12,955 nt of DNA from a virus: IMG/VR virus record IMGVR_UViG_3300027746_001082; one strand, given 5' to 3'. This document shows positions 1,313-12,955 of the stretch, piece after piece. The translations under genes and the position numbers were made by a program. Positions within the stretch are counted from its first letter, which is position 1; every line of letters starts with the position of its first letter. The notes beneath the pieces were generated by a model. That model saw nothing but the letters and a program-made list of their open reading frames with translations, was not told where the DNA came from and did no database searches.

Positions 1313-1339
1313 AAAGGGGTATTTCTATACCCCTTTTTT
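1313..1339 (+). terminator. Intrinsic terminator ending the long plus-strand operon, at the convergence point with minus-strand genes
   Basis: The sequence is aaaGGGGTATttctATACCCCtttttt: a 7-bp G/C-containing stem extendable by AAA/TTT, a 4-nt loop and a T6 run. The stop codon of minus ORF 1325..1516 lies in the loop. The minus direction has only UUU after the stem. Confidence 0.7.
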
Positions 1340-1516
1340 AATGTATATACGTTCTACATATAATCTAGTATCCTTTTCGTACAAGTTAAAATACTCGGCA
1401 TTTAGGGATTTAGCAAAAGTTATAAAATTATTAATACTAGAAATATTATGATATTTACGAACTGGCTGGATATTATCCTTGAAAAAAACAATAGCACTAT
1501 ACAACTTTTTAGCCAT
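1325..1516 (-). CDS. Hypothetical protein (63 aa)
   Basis: Track ORF with an ATG start, placed 1 nt after the stop of the upstream gene, so packing is tight. I recognise no motif. Confidence 0.55.
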   Translation of the reverse strand: MAKKLYSAIVFFKDNIQPVRKYHNISSINNFITFAKSLNAEYFNLYEKDTRLYVERIYIKKGV

Positions 1517-1517
1517 T

Positions 1518-1754
1518 TTAAAGGGGTTTATCGTTTATAGCGAAGTATCTAACATTATCTTGGGTAACTGCTCTAATTTTGCGTTTAACTACCAGCGGTG
1601 CAACTGCTCGTAATATAGTAAATCTTTGCCATTTAGTAATCTCTTGCAAATCCTTTAAACTTACTACTTTGCGTTCTAATATAATAAAATATATTTTTGT
1701 TTTATTTGTCATAGTGGTATATTTGTGATGAAAAGTGTTAGAGTAGGCAATCAT
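1518..1754 (-). CDS. Small winged-helix/HTH-like DNA-binding candidate (78 aa; alternative ATG at 1712 gives 64 aa)
   Basis: The segment VVSLKDLQEITKWQRFTILRAVAPLVVKRKIRAV looks like a helix-turn-helix recognition helix plus wing. ATG 1754 lies 5 nt after the repeated CTGACTATAAAAT motif, mirroring the arrangement at 4087. Confidence 0.45.
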   Translation of the reverse strand: MIAYSNTFHHKYTTMTNKTKIYFIILERKVVSLKDLQEITKWQRFTILRAVAPLVVKRKIRAVTQDNVRYFAINDKPL

Positions 1755-1759
1755 TGTCT

Positions 1760-1772
1760 ATTTTATAGTCAG
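1760..1772 (-). promoter_or_regulatory. Repeated motif site 1: CTGACTATAAAAT on the minus strand
   Basis: The plus strand reads attttatagtcag. The core TTATAGTCAG is identical to 3002-3011 and 4099-4108. The site lies 5 nt upstream of ATG 1754. A second CTGACT sits 11 nt further upstream on the minus strand. Confidence 0.5.
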
Positions 1773-1809
1773 CGAGAAGTCAGCCTAAAAACTGGCTTCT
1801 CGTTTTTTT
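1773..1809 (+). terminator. Plus-strand-oriented intrinsic terminator inside the minus-strand gene block
   Basis: CGAGAAGTCAG (1773-1783) pairs with CTGGCTTCTCG (1792-1802), giving 11 bp with one G-U pair, an 8-nt loop and T7 at 1803-1809. On the minus strand the stem is followed by cugacuauaaaa, which is not a U tract. Confidence 0.55.
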
Positions 1810-1827
1810 ATGACTACAAACTAACCA

Positions 1828-1956
1828 TTAGTATTTTTTTATTTTTGAGTTATTAATTATATGCTCTATAAAAGCTATTAACATTATCCATAAAGTACAT
1901 ACAATAGCCATAGGAAGTATAAAAAATATCAAATAAAGTCTTTTTAGAATTGTCAT
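1828..1956 (-). CDS. Possible 42-aa single-TM peptide
   Basis: ATG 1956 to TAA 1828-1830 gives MTILKRLYLIFFILPMAIVCTLWIMLIAFIEHIINNSKIKKY. It fills the gap between the helicase gene and the hairpin, but it is short and could be a chance ORF. Confidence 0.25.
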   Translation of the reverse strand: MTILKRLYLIFFILPMAIVCTLWIMLIAFIEHIINNSKIKKY

Positions 1957-2026
1957 ATATCCCTATTTATTAGTTTATAAAATAATTTTTTAGCTAGTTC
2001 CCAAATTAGTATTGTTATAATTATCT

Positions 2027-2887
2027 TCATAATATCTTATAATTGTTTTTACTATCTTTTACAATATAGTTTTTACTTATCCATAATTTAATTAAGTTTT
2101 TAGCAAAGGCTTTACTGGTAGCAGTCCTTTCAATAATTTCGCTGGATATATCATTGTAAGGCATTGGCATAGTAACTATTTGATGTAACAAGCGTTTACT
2201 TTCAATTTCATCAATATCCGTAGCTTTTTTACCAGTATTTTTTTGCTTTTCAGTTTCTATCTGCTGGAATATCCCATTAAAATTCATTAATGTAATTGGT
2301 TCAAAATCCGAATCACTACGCATAAACCTACTAGATAGTACATAAGTATTTTTATCTTTATCTTTTGTAATATCTAAAGTAGATTGAGCAAAACGATCGC
2401 TGGCACTACCAATATGTCCAGTAGTGGCTAAATTGCTTTTTGACTGATGCAAAACTGATATTAATAAAATATTAAATTGCTTTGTTATCTTTTTTAACCA
2501 GCTAGTCAATAAACTACTTTCTTTTTCATCATTGTAATTAACTAGCAAATCTAAAAGTCCGTCAACAATCAATATAGAGCAATCTAGGTTTAATTCTAAA
2601 TAGCGTTCTATCATTTGTTTAATGGCGTTGCTGGAATCCTCACGTACTTGGAAAGCGTCAAAATAAGGTGGCAGATCGTTAATCTCAGCAAATCCTTTAA
2701 TTTTTTTAATAGTCCTATAAAAGTCGTAATCGCTACTTTCAGTATCAATTAAACATACTTTAGCCCTACTGGGGGGAGTATGCAATTTCATTGTGAAAAT
2801 ATCATAGGTATTAAATACGCTACTTATCATAGCACAAATAAAGGTTGATTTACCAGCTTTTGTTACGGCAACCCAGAAAATATACAA
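2027..2887 (-). CDS. RecA-fold P-loop NTPase, AAA_25/RepA (RSF1010)-type or DnaB-C-like replicative helicase, with a C-terminal winged-helix-like tail
   Basis: Walker A is AVTKAGKST (aa 7-15). It is followed by KVCLIDTESSDYDFYRTI, Walker B CSILIVDGLLDL and the sensor-like VLHQSKSNLATTGHIGSASDRF. The track start is TTG and the P-loop sits almost at the N-terminus, so the 5' end is doubtful (see 2863..3021). Confidence 0.8.
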   Translation of the reverse strand: MYIFWVAVTKAGKSTFICAMISSVFNTYDIFTMKLHTPPSRAKVCLIDTESSDYDFYRTIKKIKGFAEINDLPPYFDAFQVREDSSNAIKQMIERYLELNLDCSILIVDGLLDLLVNYNDEKESSLLTSWLKKITKQFNILLISVLHQSKSNLATTGHIGSASDRFAQSTLDITKDKDKNTYVLSSRFMRSDSDFEPITLMNFNGIFQQIETEKQKNTGKKATDIDEIESKRLLHQIVTMPMPYNDISSEIIERTATSKAFAKNLIKLWISKNYIVKDSKNNYKIL

Positions 2888-3021
2888 AAGTTTTGGAGTG
2901 ATCCTATATGTTTACCTTGAATAGTAAATATAATATTTTCCTTGCTTGGTATATATGCTGGGTTGTATTTGCGTTTTTTTAGTAATTCATCAATGTTTAT
3001 CTTATAGTCAGTATTTTCCAC
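2863..3021 (-). CDS. 52-codon open frame abutting the helicase gene; likely its displaced N-terminal segment
   Basis: GTG 3021 to TAA 2863-2865 gives (M)ENTDYKINIDELLKKRKYNPAYIPSKENIIFTIQGKHIGSLQNFCIFSGLP. It overlaps the helicase frame by 25 nt and is offset by one base. The overlap contains the A4 and T4 runs ccaaaacttttgtatattttctgg. Confidence 0.4.
   Translation of the reverse strand: MENTDYKINIDELLKKRKYNPAYIPSKENIIFTIQGKHIGSLQNFCIFSGLP
3002..3013 (-). promoter_or_regulatory. Repeated motif site 2: TACTGACTATAA on the minus strand
   Basis: The plus strand reads ttatagtcagta, the same 12-mer as 4099-4110. It lies at the 5' end of the helicase region. Confidence 0.45.
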
Positions 3022-3087
3022 ATTTAAAAATTTTCAAGTAAAGCACAAACTAAAAAAGCAATTAATACAAAAAGTACTGCATTTCCA

Positions 3088-3420
3088 TTAATGGTTGTAA
3101 ATAACCATTTCATCATTTTTATCATTTGTTAAGGTTTTAGTTTTTTCTTCAATAAGATTTAAAAAGTCAATAGCATCATCAATAGCAATATCCATAATAA
3201 ATAAATTTATTGCTCTATATTCTTTTTTACTATCGTCTTGATTATATTCTTCTTGATTCATAATTGCTATTTCATTTTCATTACTATCAATTTTATAACT
3301 TTTATATAATTCAAGAGCAAAATGCTCTAATTTAGATAGTCCAGGAATAGGCACTACTAAGCGTTTAAAATTGTCTTGTAATGGTACTACTGGATAAGCT
3401 GGCTGAGTTAAATTATTCAT
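3088..3420 (-). CDS. Hypothetical acidic protein (110 aa)
   Basis: Track ORF with an ATG start that overlaps the upstream gene stop by 8 nt. Acidic stretches include NQEEYNQDD and IDDAIDFLNLIEE. I recognise no motif. Confidence 0.6.
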   Translation of the reverse strand: MNNLTQPAYPVVPLQDNFKRLVVPIPGLSKLEHFALELYKSYKIDSNENEIAIMNQEEYNQDDSKKEYRAINLFIMDIAIDDAIDFLNLIEEKTKTLTNDKNDEMVIYNH

Positions 3421-3607
3421 TTGTATTAAGTTTTAATGGTTCTGCTTCATAAATTTTGTAATCTGGTTGCGTAGGTTTCATCTTAAATTCATTTTTCCAC
3501 ATTGTATATAGTTTTCCTTCAATAGTAAAACTGATATAGGTTTTACTATTTTTTGTGGATTTGTCCCAAGCACCGATACTTTGTTTTTTTTCAGTTTCGT
3601 TTTGCAT
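3413..3607 (-). CDS. Hypothetical 64-aa protein, weakly reminiscent of the DUF736 pattern
   Basis: Internal ATG 3607 gives MQNETEKKQSIGAWDKSTKNSKTYISFTIEGKLYTMWKNEFKMKPTQPDYKIY. The IGaW...yiS..i.g....w.N..K...qPDY.I pattern resembles DUF736 from memory only. The longer 3682 start would overlap ORF 3655..3801. Confidence 0.5.
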   Translation of the reverse strand: MQNETEKKQSIGAWDKSTKNSKTYISFTIEGKLYTMWKNEFKMKPTQPDYKIYEAEPLKLNTNE

Positions 3608-3654
3608 TTTTTTAAATTTTGAGTTTTTGCTAATAATAAAAAGTAGTTCATAAT

Positions 3655-3801
3655 TTATTGTGTTAAAAAGTCTATATGGCATTTTGCACTGGTTAAAGTA
3701 CTATGCTCGGACATATCCATTTGAACAATATAAATTTTTGGAGTTAAGTGATCGTATAAGGTTTCAAAAATAATATAACCTAAATAATATATTTTTTTCA
3801 T
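3655..3801 (-). CDS. Possible 48-aa hypothetical protein
   Basis: ATG 3801 lies 1 nt after the stop of ORF 3803..4087, and the stop TAA is at 3655-3657. The sequence is MKKIYYLGYIIFETLYDHLTPKIYIVQMDMSEHSTLTSAKCHIDFLTQ. It fills an otherwise empty gap of about 190 nt. Confidence 0.3.
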   Translation of the reverse strand: MKKIYYLGYIIFETLYDHLTPKIYIVQMDMSEHSTLTSAKCHIDFLTQ

Positions 3802-3802
3802 T

Positions 3803-4087
3803 TTATAAATTTTTTAAGTGTTGATTAAGTGAGGATATATCTTTTTCGTATTGATCTATGCTATCTTCTAAAATATTGATTATTTCACTAGGCAGATGAA
3901 ATGGTAGCATATCATTTGTAATATGTATCATTTTAATTTCTGCTGATTCATTAGCAGTAAATAAAATAGAAACATCTCGGTACTGGTTTAATTGATAAAT
4001 TTCAACCAGCTTTTCTTTTTTTCGTACAATTTTTTGAATTTCAAGCAATACGGCGTTGGTATTACTCAATGAGTGGTAATTAATCAT
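3803..4087 (-). CDS. Hypothetical protein (94 aa), first gene of the minus-strand block
   Basis: Track ORF. Its ATG lies 8 nt downstream of the CTGACTATAAAAT motif. I recognise no family. Confidence 0.6.
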   Translation of the reverse strand: MINYHSLSNTNAVLLEIQKIVRKKEKLVEIYQLNQYRDVSILFTANESAEIKMIHITNDMLPFHLPSEIINILEDSIDQYEKDISSLNQHLKNL

Positions 4088-4443: not shown

Positions 4444-4869
4444 ATGACTAAAAAGAATTGGTGGTTACTTCCAGCAACAATTATTGGGTATTTAGTTTAT
4501 AAAAAATATGTATTAGCAAAAAGCACTTCAGTTTTTTTTAAGTCTATTGATTTTAGTAGTATGAGTTTATTATATCCTACTATTAATATTATAGTACAAG
4601 TTAATAACCCTACTGATATTACGGCAACTATTCAAAATATTAAAGGAGATCTATATTTAAACAATGTATATGTAGGTAATGTAATAGGTATAACGCCTAC
4701 AATTTTACAAACTGGTAGCTCTACTTTAAGAATACCAGTAACTTTATCATATACTGGTGTTGCATCTTTAATAAAAGGATTTAGTACTGGTGGAATAAAA
4801 TTAAAATTTAATGGTAGTATATTAGTAGATTTTATTACTTTACCTTTAGATTTTGAGTATAATATATGA
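4444..4869 (+). CDS. Membrane-anchored LEA_2/WHy-like (LEA14-type, PF03168-like) beta-sandwich protein
   Basis: The N-terminal TM is WWLLPATIIGYLVY. It is followed by INIIVQVNNPTDITATIQNIKGDLYLNNVYVGNVIGITPTILQTGSSTLRIPVTL, which fits the v.NPN.f.i.i..i.y.l.lng..ig.g....i.a.g...l.vpv pattern of LEA type 2 proteins. Confidence 0.6.
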   Translation: MTKKNWWLLPATIIGYLVYKKYVLAKSTSVFFKSIDFSSMSLLYPTINIIVQVNNPTDITATIQNIKGDLYLNNVYVGNVIGITPTILQTGSSTLRIPVTLSYTGVASLIKGFSTGGIKLKFNGSILVDFITLPLDFEYNI

Positions 4870-6778: not shown

Positions 6779-7363
6779 ATGACACAAGCACAAAAAACTG
6801 CGAAAGCAAAATTTAAGCAAGCTATTGCTTATAGACAAAAGACTGGCGTTTCACTTAAAGAAGCGTTTGCACATATTTACGGAAAAAAGAAAGTAGGTGC
6901 AGTTAAGAAAAAATCGGCACCTAAAAAGAAAGCTGCTAAAAAAGTAGTTAAAAAGAAATATGGGTTAAACACTAAATTAGATAAGTTATATAGTGCAAAA
7001 AAACCAGGAAAGCGTGTAAGTAAAAGTGGTAAAACATATTACGAAAATAGAGAAAATCGTAGCGACAAAGGTAAAATGTATGGAGTAGTAAAAGCAAAAC
7101 CTACAATTATATCTTTAGCTAAAAAAATTGCAAGACAAACTGATTTAAATGAACATAATTTAGCAATATTATCATTAGCAAAATTTTTAAAAGCAAAAAA
7201 AGCAATAGAATTAATGAATAATGTAATTAAAATGCACGATAATTTTGGATATATGCCAAAAAATTTAATTGACATTAGAGATGAAATTTATGATACATTA
7301 ATGATGTTATTAAAATCAAAATACGGAGATATAGATTATAAAACAATACAAAATTCTTTTTAA
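6779..7363 (+). CDS. Lysine-rich histone H1-like DNA-binding candidate (194 aa)
   Basis: The basic tracts are GKKKVGAVKKKSAPKKKAAKKVVKKKYG and SAKKPGKRVSKSGKTYYENRENRSDKGK, followed by a helical C-terminal half. There is no TM segment. Confidence 0.55.
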   Translation: MTQAQKTAKAKFKQAIAYRQKTGVSLKEAFAHIYGKKKVGAVKKKSAPKKKAAKKVVKKKYGLNTKLDKLYSAKKPGKRVSKSGKTYYENRENRSDKGKMYGVVKAKPTIISLAKKIARQTDLNEHNLAILSLAKFLKAKKAIELMNNVIKMHDNFGYMPKNLIDIRDEIYDTLMMLLKSKYGDIDYKTIQNSF

Positions 7364-7404
7364 ATAAAAATTTTCTCATAAACAATAATTAAAAATCAAA
7401 CAAA

Positions 7405-7830
7405 ATGGCAAGAAGAAAAAGATCAACTAAAAAAAGTAGCTACCGCAGACGCAGAATGTCTGGTGTAGGTGCTATGGGTAGTCAAATTACTGGTGCATTA
7501 TATACAATCGCTGGTGCCGTTGCTGCTGGGGCAGTAACAAAATTTTTACCCGCAACTATGAACGATAAGCTAAAAGCAGCAGTTCCAGTAGTAGTAGGTA
7601 TTATGTTACCTAAATATTTAAAAGGCAATATCGGTCAAGGAATTGGTGCTGGTATGGTTGCAACTGGTGGGCTTAAATTAGTACAATCATTTGGAATCCT
7701 TAATGGAATCGGTGGTGGTTATGCTGGTTATCAAGTACCGCAAGTATCTGGATCATATAATAATGCTGGTTTAGTAGATACTAGCTATATGACACCTTCT
7801 ATTGCTGGTATGGACGAGGCGAATTGTTAA
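7405..7830 (+). CDS. Membrane protein with an arginine-rich N-terminus (141 aa)
   Basis: MARRKRSTKKSSYRRRRMSG is followed by Gly/Ala-rich hydrophobic helices: ITGALYTIAGAVAAGAV, AAVPVVVGIML and GIGAGMVATGGL. The leader is long and A-rich. Confidence 0.6.
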   Translation: MARRKRSTKKSSYRRRRMSGVGAMGSQITGALYTIAGAVAAGAVTKFLPATMNDKLKAAVPVVVGIMLPKYLKGNIGQGIGAGMVATGGLKLVQSFGILNGIGGGYAGYQVPQVSGSYNNAGLVDTSYMTPSIAGMDEANC

Positions 7831-7885
7831 TCTAACACATTTCACCTTTAATATAAATTTAATAAAAAATAAAAATTAAAAAACA

Positions 7886-8545
7886 ATGGCAACTCAAATG
7901 GGACAAAGAATGGTCTTTGAAAATGCAAAAGCATTAGTAAGAGGTCTAGGATATAGCGTAGATCAAGCAGTTCTTACGCAATCATATTTACGCAGTGAGG
8001 TAGCTTTATCTACTTCTATTGCAAACTATCATTTACCAGTATTAGTTAATGATACGCAAAATGGTGCCGTTCGCGTAAACGAACGTCGTCTAAATTTACA
8101 AGATATATTTGTGGCAAGTGAAATATCGGTATTAATTGGTGTTGGTTCTGCAACAAGCACAAAAGCACCATTATATACTTACCCTAATGGTGTAATATTT
8201 ACAAGTGCAACTGATGATGATTTATTGTCTATTTACAATGGTTCATTGAATTTAACAATTAACAATCAACAAGTATTACCAGCTTGGGACGTATATCGTC
8301 ATTACTATGTGCCACAAACACAAGGTGGTGTTGGTATTACTGCACAAACTATTTTCCCAGTAGACCAAAACGATGGTAGCGATAATGGATTTTATCCAGT
8401 AGAGCCAGGAATCGTATTCAATGGTGCTGCAAACATCAATTTCCAATTAACGGCAAATGGTGCACCAGCAACAATTTTAGCTAATAGTTTTATCTGCGTA
8501 ATTCAACGAGGCATTTTATTACAGAACGTCACAACGGTTAAGTAA
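7886..8545 (+). CDS. Major capsid protein candidate (219 aa; beta-rich, jelly-roll-like composition)
   Basis: The protein has no TM and is rich in V/T/N/Q/G with alternating strand-like segments: LRSEVALSTSIANYHLPVLV, RLNLQDIFVASEISVLIG, SLNLTINNQQVL, GIVFNGAANINFQLT and SFICVIQRGILLQN. It has its own 55-nt A-rich leader and is followed by a hairpin plus T-run. The call rests on position and composition only. Confidence 0.45.
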   Translation: MATQMGQRMVFENAKALVRGLGYSVDQAVLTQSYLRSEVALSTSIANYHLPVLVNDTQNGAVRVNERRLNLQDIFVASEISVLIGVGSATSTKAPLYTYPNGVIFTSATDDDLLSIYNGSLNLTINNQQVLPAWDVYRHYYVPQTQGGVGITAQTIFPVDQNDGSDNGFYPVEPGIVFNGAANINFQLTANGAPATILANSFICVIQRGILLQNVTTVK

Positions 8546-8602
8546 TTGATTATCAACTACTTGTAGTAAAAATATACTTTGGCGAAGTTAAACGCTACTG
8601 CC

Positions 8603-8629
8603 AGCGGTCAGTAACTACCGCTATTTTTT
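8603..8629 (+). terminator. Weak intrinsic terminator or attenuator after the capsid candidate
   Basis: AGCGGT (8603-8608) pairs with ACCGCT (8617-8622), with an 8-nt loop, then aTTTTTT (8624-8629). It lies in the largest intergenic gap of the plus operon, about 104 nt. Confidence 0.4.
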
Positions 8630-8649
8630 AAATTATTAAAAATAAAGAT

Positions 8650-9057
8650 ATGCGTATTAAAAGATACCAAGCAGTTGAGATTAATGTGCCAAGTGGAAGT
8701 ACACTAACTTTCTTTTCGTTCACTGATCAACCACAGCTAAGGAATGCTAAAATACAAGGTATTCAAGTATATACGCCTACTGCAATTACAAAAACGCCTT
8801 TAAGTGGTGCTACCCCAGTTACATTAGCAGACTTAAAGCAATCGTTTTTAACATTGTATCAAGGCGACTTACAAATTATATATAGATTACCATTGTTAGC
8901 ATTCAACAATATACAAGATTTAACAAGTCCAAGTGTTTGGGAATTACCAGAAATGAACGATATAGATATTAGTTGGACTAAAAGTAGTGTTACAACGGCA
9001 GCGGCATTAGCAACTACTGGTGTAACATATAGTTTCGGAATTTATTATTATTTATAA
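8650..9057 (+). CDS. Second small beta-rich structural candidate (135 aa; minor capsid, second jelly-roll or penton)
   Basis: The sequence is MRIKRYQAVEINVPSGSTLTFFSFTDQPQLRNAKIQGIQVYTP...LQIIYRLPLLAFNN...VTYSFGIYYYL. It has no TM and a strand-like periodicity, and lies directly after the capsid candidate. Confidence 0.4.
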   Translation: MRIKRYQAVEINVPSGSTLTFFSFTDQPQLRNAKIQGIQVYTPTAITKTPLSGATPVTLADLKQSFLTLYQGDLQIIYRLPLLAFNNIQDLTSPSVWELPEMNDIDISWTKSSVTTAAALATTGVTYSFGIYYYL

Positions 9058-9069
9058 TATAGTTTTATT

Positions 9070-9792
9070 ATGGCAGTTCAAAAAGCAATGACTACTGGAA
9101 CTAACGGAGTTATGGACTGGTTTGACAGAAATGCAACCAGTCCGTATTACTCGGTTTGTGAAATAATTAGTCCTACAAAAAAAGAGTTACTTTTTTCTTG
9201 TAATGAAGATAGCGTAGATAACGCTAGGCGAATATTAGAAGAAAATATATCTGCGTTTGAGCAAAACGGAGTTAATACTTTATATGCTTTAATCTTGCAC
9301 CCTAAAAAAGACAAGACTGGATATATTACTATGAATACGCCAAGCCACGCTATGCTAAAATTTAGACCAGCAGAATTAGAGCAACCAATCTACGGAGTAG
9401 GTGCCTATACTGGTGGTGGAAGCAATCGTTATGAAATGGAAAAAATAATGGAAAAGCTAAATTTATTGGAAAATAAACTAGCAATGGCAGAAGAAGAAGA
9501 AGATATTGTAGATACGCCAGTAAATCCATTAAACGCAATGCTTCATAATATGGCTGCAAATCCGCAAGTACAAGAGGCTTTAATTAGTGGTTTATTAGGT
9601 GTAGTAGGTGGTTTTTTAAATAATGGTAAACAAATGCAAGGCGTAGCTGGTATTAATGTAACTGCTGAAATTACAGAAGAATCATTGCAAATACTAGATA
9701 GCTTAATGAAAAAAGGTGTTAGTTTAGATCATCTAAGAAAATTAGATGCTATGCCTAATACTAAATTACAAAGTTTATTAATAATGTTATAA
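9070..9792 (+). CDS. Hypothetical structural/assembly protein (240 aa) with a central acidic coiled-coil-like stretch and one hydrophobic segment
   Basis: The coiled-coil-like stretch is YEMEKIMEKLNLLENKLAMAEEEEDIV and the hydrophobic segment is ALISGLLGVVGGFL. I recognise no family. Confidence 0.6.
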   Translation: MAVQKAMTTGTNGVMDWFDRNATSPYYSVCEIISPTKKELLFSCNEDSVDNARRILEENISAFEQNGVNTLYALILHPKKDKTGYITMNTPSHAMLKFRPAELEQPIYGVGAYTGGGSNRYEMEKIMEKLNLLENKLAMAEEEEDIVDTPVNPLNAMLHNMAANPQVQEALISGLLGVVGGFLNNGKQMQGVAGINVTAEITEESLQILDSLMKKGVSLDHLRKLDAMPNTKLQSLLIML

Positions 9793-10277
9793 TGGCAATA
9801 GATAAGCAAACACAAAAACTTTTATTATATGCTGCAATCGGTGGCGGTGCGTATTTTTTAATATTACGCCCATTACTTATTAAATTAGGTATTTTAAAGA
9901 GTCCTTTAGAATTACAGCAAGAGCAAAGCCAAAAAGAAAATATTGATAGCTATGTTAATAGTTCTTTGAAAATACAAACGCCAACTAAATCAAAAGGCGA
10001 ATGGCAAATTATTGCAGATCAAATATATAATGATCTAAAATTTAGTGGAATTGCTGACAATAAAAGTGATGCTGGTTCTCAAGTAGCAAGAGTTCAAAAT
10101 GATGCAGATGTCGCATTATTAATACAAATTTTTGGAATGAGGCAAGAAAGTTTTTTTGGAATCAATACTGGTGGATTGCAAAATTTACCACAATTTATTA
10201 TTGGTAATTTAAGCAAAAGTGATATAGCTAAGATTAACGATAATTATGCTAGAAAAAAAATAAAATTTAGGTTTTAA
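9792..10277 (+). CDS. Membrane protein (161 aa) with an N-terminal TM
   Basis: The TM is LLLYAAIGGGAYFLILRPLLI. A TAATG overlap links it to the upstream gene. Confidence 0.6.
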   Translation: MAIDKQTQKLLLYAAIGGGAYFLILRPLLIKLGILKSPLELQQEQSQKENIDSYVNSSLKIQTPTKSKGEWQIIADQIYNDLKFSGIADNKSDAGSQVARVQNDADVALLIQIFGMRQESFFGINTGGLQNLPQFIIGNLSKSDIAKINDNYARKKIKFRF

Positions 10278-10291
10278 CTAAAAAAAGAATT

Positions 10292-10579
10292 ATGAAAAAT
10301 AAAAGTACAATGTTATTAGTAGGTATTGGAATAGCTTATTTATTATACCGATTATATGCAAAAAAATCAATGGCACCAGTTAATACTGCAAGTGCTAAAC
10401 CAAATATATTAGATACAAACGATCATAATGTTGTAACTGCTCAATTACCTAATCAATTTTTAGTAGATTCTATTAATACGGCTGAACTTGTTGATATGCC
10501 ATCAATTTATCAAACTTATTATGGAAATACTAATGTAAGAATAAATGGTGCTATGTCAAAAGTACCTTCTACTTGCTAA
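10292..10579 (+). CDS. Small membrane protein (95 aa) with an N-terminal TM
   Basis: The N-terminus is MKNKSTMLLVGIGIAYLLYRLYAKK, followed by a soluble tail. Confidence 0.6.
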   Translation: MKNKSTMLLVGIGIAYLLYRLYAKKSMAPVNTASAKPNILDTNDHNVVTAQLPNQFLVDSINTAELVDMPSIYQTYYGNTNVRINGAMSKVPSTC

Positions 10580-10606
10580 CATTTTTAACCTTTAAAAAAT
10601 ATTAAT

Positions 10607-10879
10607 ATGAGTAATTTTACTTTAAAAGCTGGATATATTGAATATGATGTAAACTTTATTACTTATGATGTAAACGGATTTGTAACAACTAATTGTAATA
10701 GTATTACTTTTATTAATTACGGATCTAATCAAGTAACTATTGAAAGCGTTGTATTGCAACAAAATCAAAGTTTAGCAATAGATGGAAATGCTGGCGAAAT
10801 AATGCACAAACAATTTTTAGCAACCTTTAGTGGTGCTGGTACTAATAACTTAGTAACAATAAAGAAAAATTATTTATAA
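10607..10879 (+). CDS. Small beta-rich protein (90 aa); possible vertex or fibre-adaptor component
   Basis: The sequence is all strand-like: ITFINYGSNQVTIESVVL, SLAIDGNAGE and LVTIKKNYL. Its stop is 1 nt before the fibre gene ATG. The functional call rests on position only. Confidence 0.5.
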   Translation: MSNFTLKAGYIEYDVNFITYDVNGFVTTNCNSITFINYGSNQVTIESVVLQQNQSLAIDGNAGEIMHKQFLATFSGAGTNNLVTIKKNYL

Positions 10880-10880
10880 T

Positions 10881-12791
10881 ATGAGTATGATAGGCGTAGA
10901 TTATGGAGTACTGAATCAAAAAGGCAGTCCGTCTTGGTTTAGTGATATATATGCCAATATACCTACGGCTGGTTATAAAGGTCGTATGTTTATATCTATT
11001 GATACATACGCATTTTATAGAGATACTGGTACGGGCTGGGATTTAATTGGTGGCCCTGGTACTGGAACTTTAACTGGTAGTGGTGTAAGCGGGCAAGTAT
11101 CTTTTTTTAATGGTACCCAAACAATTACTGGAAACAATAACTTATTTTGGGATAATACTAATAACAGATTAGGAATTAATACAGCAACGCCAGGACAAGC
11201 CTTAGATATACATTCAACTGCAAATACTTTAGTACAATTAAATAATACGACTACTGGAGATAGTGTTATTGCTTTTCAAAATCAAAATGTAACTAAGTGG
11301 AAAATTGGAAATGTTTACAATGCTGGTGCTAATAGTTTTAGTATAACTAATCCAATTTTGTCAAGTACGCCATTTACAATTAGTAGTGGTGATGCAATTA
11401 CTTTAAATTCAAATGTTACTACGACTGGTGCACAATTTGTTCAAAATGGGTTATATTTAACAAATGCAAATGCTGGTGCTTTAGCATTTTACACAAATAT
11501 TTGGGGGAGGAATGATGGAATAAATTTTGCTTTAAGAAATTTAACTGGAGGTGCAGGTTTTATTTTTCAAAGTGCAGCTAGTTATGATTATACTTTTCCA
11601 GCAAGTGCTGGTACTTTAGCACTAACAAGCAATTTAAGTAGTTATCTTCCTTTAACTGGTGGAACTTTAACTGGTGCATTAGTTATTAACCCAACTAATA
11701 CTCTTACTATTGGTTTAGATGTAGCTAGTAATACAACAAGATTTAGAAGTGATAATTTAGAGGGTAATAAAAGGCAATTAGAAATTGTAATGGGTAGTGG
11801 TACTTTAGTACAATTAACTGCAAAAGGTTATCTTGCTAATTATGGTACCGATATGGCTTTTTATACTGCCACTACTGGTGGAACAAATGCTAGTCCAGGA
11901 ATATATATAACTGGTACTAATAATAGAGTAGGTATTAAAACTGGAACGCCTAGTTATGATTTAGATGTAACTGGAACTTTTGGTACAAGTGGCTCGGCTA
12001 CTTTTGGTAGTGATGTATTTACATATAATAATGGAGGTATTTTTTTTAGTGGTGGTGGTACTTATACAAGTGGAATATTACAAAACGCAAATGGATTAGC
12101 TTTACAATCAGGAACAGCAGTTAGAATGGTTATAGGCTCAACAGGTAATGTAGGTATTGGTACATCTTCACCAAATTCATTATTAACTGTTAGAGGAACT
12201 CCTAATACTGATTATGGTTCTATTAATGCTTTTGATACTAGAACGGCAGCCATAAATCAAGGGCCATCTATTGCTTTTGGAGGATTTGTTACAGGAACTT
12301 CATCAGGTGCTACATTTGGTTTAATTGGAGCAAAAAAAGAAAATGCTACTGCTGGTGATGAAGCAGGTTACATAACTTTTAATCCGAATAATGGTGGTGG
12401 AGTTTATACTGAAAGAATGCGTATTAGCTCTGCTGGAGTAGTTACAATAACCAATTTAGGAACAGGAACAGTAACTTCAACAAGTGGTGTATTATCTGTT
12501 GTTTCAGATATGAATTTAAAAATTGAAGATGGATATATAGAAAACGCATTAGAAAAGGTAATAAATTTAAAGCCAAGATATTTCTTATGGAAAGATGAAA
12601 GTGGCTTACCTACTAATTTAAGACAATTAGGATTTTATGCTCAAGAAGTTAATGCAGCATTAGGAGAAGAAGTAGCAAATACACCAAGTGAAAATAATAA
12701 TTGGGGAATTCATGATAGAGGTATAATAGCAATGTTAACAAAAGCAATACAAGAATTAAACGAAAAATTAGTAAAAAATAATATAAATTAA
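10881..12791 (+). CDS. Receptor-binding fibre/spike with a C-terminal peptidase S74 intramolecular chaperone (autoproteolytic) domain
   Basis: The C-terminus SDMNLKIEDGYIENALEKVINLKPRYFLWKDESG...RQLGFYAQEVNAALGEEV...GIHDRGIIAMLTKAIQELNEKL matches the endosialidase-chaperone pattern (SD.r.K...l..l.pv.f.......GfiAQEv....p..v......v.y..l.a.l..AiqeL). Upstream fibre hallmarks are LPLTGGTLTGAL and three N.(L/V)GI.T..P...L.(I/V) repeats. Confidence 0.85.
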   Translation: MSMIGVDYGVLNQKGSPSWFSDIYANIPTAGYKGRMFISIDTYAFYRDTGTGWDLIGGPGTGTLTGSGVSGQVSFFNGTQTITGNNNLFWDNTNNRLGINTATPGQALDIHSTANTLVQLNNTTTGDSVIAFQNQNVTKWKIGNVYNAGANSFSITNPILSSTPFTISSGDAITLNSNVTTTGAQFVQNGLYLTNANAGALAFYTNIWGRNDGINFALRNLTGGAGFIFQSAASYDYTFPASAGTLALTSNLSSYLPLTGGTLTGALVINPTNTLTIGLDVASNTTRFRSDNLEGNKRQLEIVMGSGTLVQLTAKGYLANYGTDMAFYTATTGGTNASPGIYITGTNNRVGIKTGTPSYDLDVTGTFGTSGSATFGSDVFTYNNGGIFFSGGGTYTSGILQNANGLALQSGTAVRMVIGSTGNVGIGTSSPNSLLTVRGTPNTDYGSINAFDTRTAAINQGPSIAFGGFVTGTSSGATFGLIGAKKENATAGDEAGYITFNPNNGGGVYTERMRISSAGVVTITNLGTGTVTSTSGVLSVVSDMNLKIEDGYIENALEKVINLKPRYFLWKDESGLPTNLRQLGFYAQEVNAALGEEVANTPSENNNWGIHDRGIIAMLTKAIQELNEKLVKNNIN

Positions 12792-12792
12792 T

Positions 12793-12955
12793 ATGAAACA
12801 AATATTACCAGTATCAATATGGTACAACGGACAAATGGTATCGGCCACTTTATTTAATATGGTATGTACAAATGATAATTTAATAGATAGTGCTACTTTT
12901 TATTATCAATTATATGTAAATGTAAATTTTCAAGTAGCTGACGGAGTATTATCAA
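12793..12955 (+). CDS. 5' part of the junction-spanning 86-aa ORF (continues at base 1)
   Basis: ATG 12793 lies 1 nt after the fibre stop. The frame stays open to the window end and is in phase with 1..225 through the 127-nt duplicate. Confidence 0.6.
   Translation, partial: MKQILPVSIWYNGQMVSATLFNMVCTNDNLIDSATFYYQLYVNVNFQVADGVLS
12829..12955. repeat. Terminal overlap copy B, identical to 1-127
   Basis: Same 127-nt string as bases 1-127. The unit genome length is therefore 12,828 bp. Confidence 0.9.

Follow-up and report, generated by a model that had tools for sequence, protein, structure and literature searches.

Which proteins form the shell of a virus whose candidate capsid genes have no match in sequence searches? 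The question is raised by IMG/VR record IMGVR_UViG_3300027746_001082, a stretch of 12,955 nucleotides (nt) that we analyzed as a whole and refer to here as the window. A first-pass annotation, made from the letters alone, had singled out two adjacent beta-rich open reading frames (ORFs) of 219 and 135 amino acids (aa) as capsid genes, possibly encoding two single jelly-roll major capsid proteins (MCPs), with a penton role for the shorter one as an alternative. Both ORFs were recovered at the positions assigned to them, are conserved (dN/dS, about 0.09), and have A/T-rich leaders, as described. We strongly infer a capsid role for both proteins. The arrangement that we prefer, at a probability of roughly 0.45, is a 219-aa MCP accompanied by a less abundant, penton-like 135-aa shell protein. 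Jelly-roll tailless phages are badly undersampled, and to our knowledge single jelly-roll hexon capsids are known only from a few extremophile viruses (of Thermus, Salisaeta, haloarchaea, and Sulfolobus). Here the predicted single jelly-roll building block occurs in a very diverse, largely freshwater-lake lineage that is probably hosted by Bacteroidota.

Two predicted single jelly-roll proteins

That both ORFs are genuine genes subject to purifying selection follows from their many relatives and low dN/dS. In a database clustered at 90% identity, the 219-aa protein has 1,024 relatives and the 135-aa protein has 439; median dN/dS values against 26 relatives were 0.094 and 0.082, respectively. 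An exhaustive HMMER scan of representatives divided the 219-aa family into 623 clusters at 50% identity, and nearly all full-length members are 210 to 240 aa long. In every related locus with room for the pair, the 135-aa gene lies directly 3' of the 219-aa gene. The two families themselves have no detectable common origin in a profile-profile comparison (hhalign probability, 2%).

Sequence searches placed neither protein. There was no Pfam or PHROGs match for the two proteins and 113 family members, no match in PDB sequence (phmmer) or PDB profile searches, and no tblastn match for both proteins plus two distant family members among 50,697 GenBank phage records; the 219-aa protein also had no tblastn match among 72,556 plasmids. 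Pfam, PHROGs, and PDB sequence searches miss both proteins. The two families can serve as new hallmark families for annotating such phages in metagenomes.

Structure prediction was more informative. AlphaFold2, given an alignment of 113 sequences with identities as low as about 30%, returned a model of the 219-aa protein (pLDDT, 87.6; pTM, 0.83) with an N-terminal helix (residues 4 to 20), about eight long strands, and one further helix (residues 107 to 117); the protein is confidently predicted to be one jelly roll, not two. The alignment for the 135-aa protein (33 sequences, down to 24% identity) was built from the neighbors of distant MCP genes, found as cluster members, and yielded a compact sandwich of eight to nine strands (pLDDT, 91.4; pTM, 0.85), again a confidently predicted single jelly roll. 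The fold on which the first-pass proposal depended was thus returned for both proteins, each modeled as a single eight-stranded beta-sandwich. We also considered the 219-aa protein as a minimal double jelly roll and rejected this because its model has only about eight strands. Size had been used earlier for the same purpose, with PM2 P2 taken as the smallest double jelly-roll MCP; that minimum is outdated, since PhiCjT23 P5 is smaller (239 aa; PMC9719478).

Foldseek comparison of the 219-aa model with the PDB placed two SPV1 chains first (6oj0_Z and 6oj0_A; E = 4.5e-4 and 4.1e-3; probability, 0.97 to 0.99), followed by PCV2 circovirus Cap, the FLiP penton (8a06), P23-77 VP17, and bromovirus and tymovirus coats; PRD1 P3 came lower (ranks 28 to 48). 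The MCPs of FLiP, PhiCjT23, and PM2 were not among the top 50 PDB matches. In BFVD, the matches were I1ZBH9 (211 aa; TM-score, 0.48 to 0.50), SPV1 VP4, and many CRESS-virus capsids. The search against jelly-roll MCPs that the first-pass annotation had called for returned jelly-roll capsid proteins (SPV1 VP4/VP10, P23-77 VP17, and the FLiP penton), all with weak scores. Structural neighbors in both databases are mostly viral capsid proteins; these weak matches establish a fold class and a capsid flavor but neither descent nor lineage. The 135-aa model had generic jelly-roll matches only (E of at least 0.03), including CMV and CCMV coat proteins, CD40L, SPV1 6oj0_A (TMq, 0.44), and enterovirus VP1, and further matches, likewise with E above 0.03, were neuropilin b1, botulinum toxin Hc, and the cement protein of Pam1.

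Expression signals and the roles of the two proteins

The first-pass annotation had noticed a hairpin and T-run behind the 219-aa ORF (8603 to 8629) and had read it as a means of raising the relative amount of that protein. A terminator scan of the window, which found 14 terminator-like sites (versus 4.6 ± 2.5 in shuffled sequences), included this hairpin. Its stem (AGCGGT-loop-ACCGCT, 8603 to 8622) is followed by ATTTTTT and ends 27 nt before the start codon of the 135-aa gene. Hairpin and T-run are kept in far more than 100 related genomes (loci L001 to L085 and 61 of 65 further loci), with compensatory changes that give stems as different as AGCGGT/ACCGCT, GAGGGT/ACCCTC, GGTGGGG/CCCCACC, and GGGGCGG/CCGCCCC; among the five pairs that RNAalifold placed in the hairpin, four had changes on both sides. 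With a G+C-rich stem-loop, a following T-run, and covariation, the element has the sequence features of an intrinsic terminator, and it looks like an intrinsic terminator, attenuator, or 3'-end stabilizer for the 219-aa gene. A second conserved hairpin (about 8581 to 8596; GGCG...CGCT, or GGCGGG...CGCCGCC in relatives) lies just 5' of it. A search for promoters of the Bacteroidota type (TTTG...TAnnTTTG) gave no match 5' of the MCP gene and no enrichment.

Codon usage provided an independent proxy. Measured over 88 loci as the fraction of C-ending two-fold codons, codon bias in the 219-aa gene (0.38 to 0.41, versus 0.29 in the 135-aa gene) exceeds that of all other late genes except the upstream Arg-rich protein gene (Table 1), and an independent set of loci gave nearly the same pair of values (0.40 versus 0.28). 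Because the terminator-like hairpin and codon bias agree as two independent proxies, the 219-aa protein is probably made in excess over the 135-aa protein, and family-wide conservation of the hairpin, together with codon bias, supports the function first proposed for it. Such an excess fits an MCP plus a penton better than two co-equal MCPs and counts against the 135-aa protein as the former of hexons.

In the arrangement that we prefer, which takes SPV1 VP4 as the analogue, single jelly rolls of the 219-aa protein would assemble into hexamers and so form the hexagonal capsomers. The hairpin and T-run would end or stabilize most transcripts after the 219-aa gene, and the protein would thereby be made in larger amounts than any product encoded downstream. 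The 135-aa protein would be translated from read-through transcripts and would most likely be a pentamer closing the five-fold vertices, like SPV1 VP10, PRD1 P31, and the FLiP penton. A sequence-level search found no FtsK/HerA-type packaging ATPase in the window or in the relatives inspected, and two basic proteins, one of them as codon biased as the MCP, are encoded 5' of the MCP gene; for these two reasons, the genome would probably be condensed by proteins and enclosed during assembly rather than pumped in, which suggests something like the SPV1 nucleoprotein core. The analysis itself shows the gene models and their conservation, the predicted folds, the conservation of the terminator-like hairpin, and the ranking by codon bias; the capsid role, oligomeric states, a vertical orientation of the jelly rolls, an internal membrane, and the mode of packaging are inferred from these. 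A small T=1 or T=3 capsid with tangential jelly rolls was considered and set aside, since a larger particle with a membrane is suggested by the size of the genome and by the many small transmembrane proteins that the late operon encodes.

The 135-aa gene is not always single. Two small genes (141 and 145 aa), 13 nt apart and in different frames, come directly after the MCP gene in L087 and L088, and both of those in L087 (within 9773 to 10647) are homologous to the 135-aa protein of the window. A fused ORF of 305 aa (7437 to 8354) replaces the two genes in L084, the MCP of which is 52% identical to that of L087. Its N-terminal half matches L087_141 (34% identity; E = 1e-20), its C-terminal half matches the second L087 paralogue (36%; 2e-19), and the two halves match each other (28%; 4e-8); the duplication is therefore recent. 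To judge from its sequence, the 305-aa product would be double jelly-roll-like. In a metagenome scan of the wider clade with 75 informative loci, 54 loci had one small gene, 21 had two adjacent paralogues (L098 to L121 and others; gaps typically of 2 to 23 nt), and none had a fusion; the fused protein forms one cluster on three contigs, and no further copy turned up in a metagenome scan. A 149-aa ORF in L096 was considered as a second paralogue and not established as one (hhalign probability, 4%). In L084, the spacer between the MCP gene and the fused gene (7138 to 7436) is 299 nt long and, between two terminator-like hairpins, contains an additional short ORF (about 55 codons).

Tight coupling of the two genes, and their fusion, suggest an obligate 1:1 complex of two copies of the small protein. 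Such a complex would be natural in a six-barrel capsomer, and stacked vertex domains are also possible. If the 135-aa protein is a penton, the second copy would have to be stacked above the first. STIV A223 and PM2 P1 are multi-jelly-roll vertex proteins of this build and a precedent for duplicated or stacked domains at five-fold positions; such a build could account for a duplicated and fused penton gene. It is conceivable, at long odds, that the lineage still holds in its genomes the entire path from the single to the double jelly roll; the group would then be a bacterial counterpart, within one family, of the portoglobovirus/helvetiavirus/bamfordvirus series. The series from duplication to fusion bears on the origin of double jelly-roll capsid proteins, for which fusion of viral single jelly rolls and cellular ancestors are the competing sources (PMC8812541).

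Several observations weigh against an MCP of 219 aa with a penton of 135 aa. All structural matches are weak (best Foldseek E values of the 219- and 135-aa models, 4.5e-4 and 3.3e-2, respectively; TM-scores, ≤0.5), and codon bias is an indirect proxy for abundance. The paired or fused small gene (21 of 75 loci, and L084) would sit more naturally in a six-fold (3+3) capsomer than at a five-fold position. A conserved 90-aa beta protein encoded beside the fiber gene is a rival candidate for the vertex. Finally, the host call described below has binning into metagenome-assembled genomes (MAGs) as its sole basis.

The best-surviving alternative is the one put forward first, which we now regard as unlikely: the 219- and 135-aa proteins would be the large and small vertical single jelly-roll MCPs, and pseudohexagonal capsomers would be built from their homo- and heterodimers as in P23-77, HCIV-1, and HHIV-2; a third protein, such as the 90-aa one, would be the penton. 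The genes are adjacent, both products are predicted single jelly rolls, P23-77 VP17 is among the matches of the 219-aa model, and the 135:219 size ratio resembles those of VP16/VP17 and VP7/VP4. P23-77 VP16 forms homodimers, and the pairing of small genes in 21 loci and the L084 fusion would be expected if a dimer acts within a six-barrel capsomer; the conserved 90-aa protein would be free for the vertex. Capsomers of HCIV-1 consist of VP7-VP4 heterodimers plus individual VP7 (PMC6414509). However, the 135-aa protein is unlikely to equal or exceed the 219-aa protein in stoichiometry, given the intervening terminator-like hairpin and the clearly lower codon bias of its gene; an FtsK/HerA packaging ATPase is a hallmark of sphaerolipovirus-type viruses and is present in helvetiaviruses (PMC8812541), and none was found here; and the two families lack the detectable common origin sought by profile comparison. 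A mirror-tree analysis gave no special coevolution of the two proteins, with distances dominated by shared phylogeny and hence not discriminating. The prediction of two single jelly rolls stands, their equal standing as MCPs is less likely, and the probably lower amount of the 135-aa protein fits the penton alternative of the first-pass annotation at least as well. We favor the penton over a second MCP.

The roles could also be reversed, with the 135-aa protein forming the hexagonal capsomers (homohexamers, 3+3 heterohexamers where the gene is duplicated, or new double jelly-roll trimers in L084) and the 219-aa protein forming the penton. The progression from a single gene to a coupled pair to a fused 305-aa ORF is as predicted by the classical scheme in which single jelly-roll MCPs give rise to double ones, and 135 aa corresponds to one half of the minimal double jelly-roll MCP, that of PhiCjT23 (239 aa; PMC9719478). 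Moreover, like the 219-aa model, VP9, the penton of HCIV-1, combines a jelly roll with a helix at the N terminus (PMC6414509), and the FLiP penton is among the matches of that model. We nevertheless consider this arrangement improbable: the gene of a 60-copy penton is not expected to lead the late genes in both conservation and codon bias, a terminator after a penton gene would lower the expression of a protein needed in >1,000 copies, the small genes are the least biased of the three in the two-paralogue clade (0.17 and 0.23, versus 0.32 for the MCP gene), and the fused form was seen in one lineage only.

Equally improbable, jelly rolls being common outside capsids and the matches of the 135-aa model being generic (CD40L, neuropilin b1, botulinum toxin Hc, and Pam1 cement protein), is that one or both are not shell proteins but jelly-roll/TNF-like adhesins, decoration or cement proteins, or carbohydrate-binding modules, the capsid being built from an unrecognized protein; against this, no other ORF scanned in the 12.8-kb genome matches a known capsid family or is a plausible MCP (those annotated are lysozyme, fiber, P-loop, LEA_2-like, transglutaminase-like, small transmembrane, and basic proteins), both genes are universally conserved at the center of the late operon, and the matches of the 219-aa model are overwhelmingly capsid proteins.

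Genome, neighboring genes, and host

The first 127 bases of the window are identical to the last 127 (1 to 127 and 12829 to 12955); the window is therefore a circularly closed, complete genome of 12,828 bp, and an 87-aa ORF spans the junction (about 12790 to 225). Features of the late region are listed in Table 1.

Table 1. Late-region features of the window. Codon bias is the fraction of C-ending two-fold codons over 88 loci.
Feature	Coordinates	Strand	Basis	Codon bias
194-aa Lys-rich basic protein, pI 10.2	6779..7363	+	ORF list; counterparts in L082, L084, L086, L092	
141-aa protein, Arg-rich N terminus MARRKRSTKKSSYRRRR, Gly/hydrophobic-rich body	7405..7830	+	ORF list; synteny; codon bias	0.43
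219-aa protein gene (predicted single jelly roll)	7886..8545	+	ORF list; AlphaFold2; Foldseek	0.38-0.41
Intergenic element, two hairpins and T-run	8575..8629	+	Terminator scan; conservation; RNAalifold	
135-aa protein gene (predicted compact single jelly roll)	8650..9057	+	ORF list; AlphaFold2; Foldseek	0.29
240-aa acidic protein, no P-loop	9070..9792	+	ORF list; synteny; always after small jelly-roll gene	0.26
90-aa beta-rich protein	10607..10879	+	ORF list; always directly 5' of fiber gene	0.31
636-aa fiber or spike, C-terminal intramolecular chaperone domain	10881..12791	+	Peptidase_S74 (4.1e-08); PHROG tail-fiber families	0.17

The late operon on the plus strand opens with genes for a LEA_2-like transmembrane protein, a transglutaminase-like protein, and further transmembrane proteins, followed by those for the Lys-rich basic protein, the Arg-rich Gly/hydrophobic protein, and the 219-aa protein; the hairpin and the 135-aa, acidic 240-aa, transmembrane, 90-aa beta, S74 fiber, small-protein, and lysozyme genes come after it. 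The block from the basic and Arg-rich proteins through the 219-, 135-, and 240-aa proteins, with the 90-aa protein and fiber farther on, is kept down to about 32% MCP identity. The Arg-rich gene always adjoins the 5' side of the 219-aa gene, distant relatives included, and its codon bias is the highest in the genome; its product is a candidate for an abundant internal protein touching DNA or membrane. Its Lys-rich neighbor is a candidate DNA-condensing protein.

Downstream, the 240-aa protein has homologs in two relatives (L087_229 and L091_244; E, about 4e-14) and no Pfam or PHROG match; it is a candidate assembly, scaffold, or membrane-associated factor. The 90-aa family comprises 80 ORFs across near and distant loci, shows about eight strand-like segments by eye, and has no detectable sequence relation to the 219- or 135-aa families. 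We consider the 90-aa protein a candidate vertex adaptor or miniature penton. Its presence, with that of the fiber, qualifies the earlier statement that the 219- and 135-aa products are the only sizable soluble strand-rich proteins. The product of the first late gene (4444 to 4869) is 141 aa long and combines a LEA_2 (PF03168) beta-sandwich domain (E = 1.2e-7) with a hydrophobic stretch at its N terminus that is borderline by hydropathy; L087 and L094 also had weak LEA_2 matches, and the domain is unusual for a phage.

On the minus strand, the replication module (1325 to 4087) is interchangeable within the lineage: an AAA_25 P-loop gene is present in the window and L087, REP_ORF2-G2P in L086, Rep_1 in L094, and a VapE-like primase-helicase in L096, those of L086 and L094 being rolling-circle initiators. 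Many close relatives have the P-loop gene on the same strand as the MCP gene, i.e., with the module inverted. The only P-loop ORF of the window belongs to this early module and matches AAA_25 and primase-helicase families. In its gene (2027 to 3021), the reading frame shifts precisely within the Walker A motif (...FSGLP and a stop, then ...TKAGKST), leaving ORFs of 52 and 286 aa. It is split similarly in L008 and L010 and is a single ORF, typically of 332 to 338 aa, in 67 relatives; the split may reflect either misassembly or a variant that is defective or frameshifts.

Genome collections gave matches only to short contigs, assigned by binning to lake MAGs labeled "uncultured Bacteroidetes." This binning is a weak hint that the host is probably a member of Bacteroidota, with which the G+C content of the window (30%) is consistent. 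Many members of the 219-aa family come from lake metagenomes, and relatives are found mostly on contigs of 11 to 14 kb. One longer contig (Ga0315903_10003825; 20,551 bp; loci L147 and L162) has the MCP gene twice, with about 13 kb between the copies; the spacing is close to the genome size of the lineage, and a circular genome may have been assembled here as a head-to-tail dimer. A megablast search of the whole window against GenBank phages gave no known relative. We conclude that the window represents an abundant, uncultivated phage lineage, undescribed in all resources searched, that is probably tailless and membrane containing.

Comparison with known systems

FLiP (Finnlakeviridae) and PhiCjT23 are lipid-containing single-stranded DNA phages of Flavobacterium and thus share the probable host phylum; FLiP also shares the lake habitat. 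FLiP has a small circular genome (about 9 kb) and uses a rolling-circle Rep, and some relatives of the window carry rolling-circle Rep proteins. The FLiP penton chain (8a06; 147 residues) is near the 135-aa protein in size and matches the 219-aa model. FLiP is without a packaging ATPase (PMC8812541), and none was found in the window. The MCPs of these phages, however, are double jelly rolls of 239 aa (PhiCjT23; PMC9719478) or larger (FLiP), whereas the candidate MCP here is a predicted single jelly roll, its model having a single set of about eight strands instead of the doubled set of a Bamfordvirae MCP. There is also no sequence similarity to either phage.

Viruses of the helvetiavirus type combine a pair of single jelly-roll MCPs with a packaging ATPase and with a further single jelly-roll protein, the penton VP9, which carries a helix at its N terminus (PMC6414509, PMC8812541). 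The Helvetiavirae/Singelaviria (P23-77 VP16/VP17; VP7/VP4 of HCIV-1, HHIV-2, and SH1; and possibly SSIP-1) resemble the window in having neighboring, unequal single jelly-roll genes and a likely internal membrane. They differ in that no FtsK/HerA ATPase was found here, the expression signals indicate unequal abundance, and the genome is 2 to 3 times smaller; no sequence or profile homology to VP16/VP17 or VP4/VP7 was detected in PDB, Pfam, PHROGs, or phage records. The first-pass annotation had considered a two-MCP arrangement new for phages of Bacteroidota-like hosts. That view needs a caveat, because SSIP-1, a membrane phage of Salisaeta (a Bacteroidetes-affiliated host), has been reported to have two MCP types (PMC6356626). 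In SSIP-1, two structural proteins with adjacent genes, gp45 and gp46 (210 and 211 aa), have no sequence or profile similarity to the families described here. The length of gp46 equals that of I1ZBH9 (211 aa), the best BFVD match of similar size to the 219-aa protein, which may be the same protein.

The archaeal virus SPV1 (Portogloboviridae) builds its shell from hexamers of the single jelly-roll protein VP4 and pentamers of the single jelly-roll protein VP10, has a nucleoprotein core, and lacks a packaging ATPase (PMC8459092, PMC8812541). SPV1 and the phage described here differ in several respects: SPV1 has a hyperthermophilic archaeal host, a 20-kb genome, and a T=43 capsid; its two chains are of about 180 residues each, whereas those here are unequal (219 and 135 aa); the present phage encodes a lysozyme and a fiber of the S74 type; and there is no sequence similarity, with TM-scores of 0.30 to 0.45. 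The two nevertheless share two single jelly-roll shell proteins (predicted here), a genome that is circular, a core of nucleoprotein or basic proteins (putative here), and no detected packaging ATPase. In addition, SPV1 chains are the best PDB matches of the 219-aa model, and one of them (6oj0_A) also matches the 135-aa model. Among the known systems, SPV1 is thus probably the closest analogue of how this phage works.

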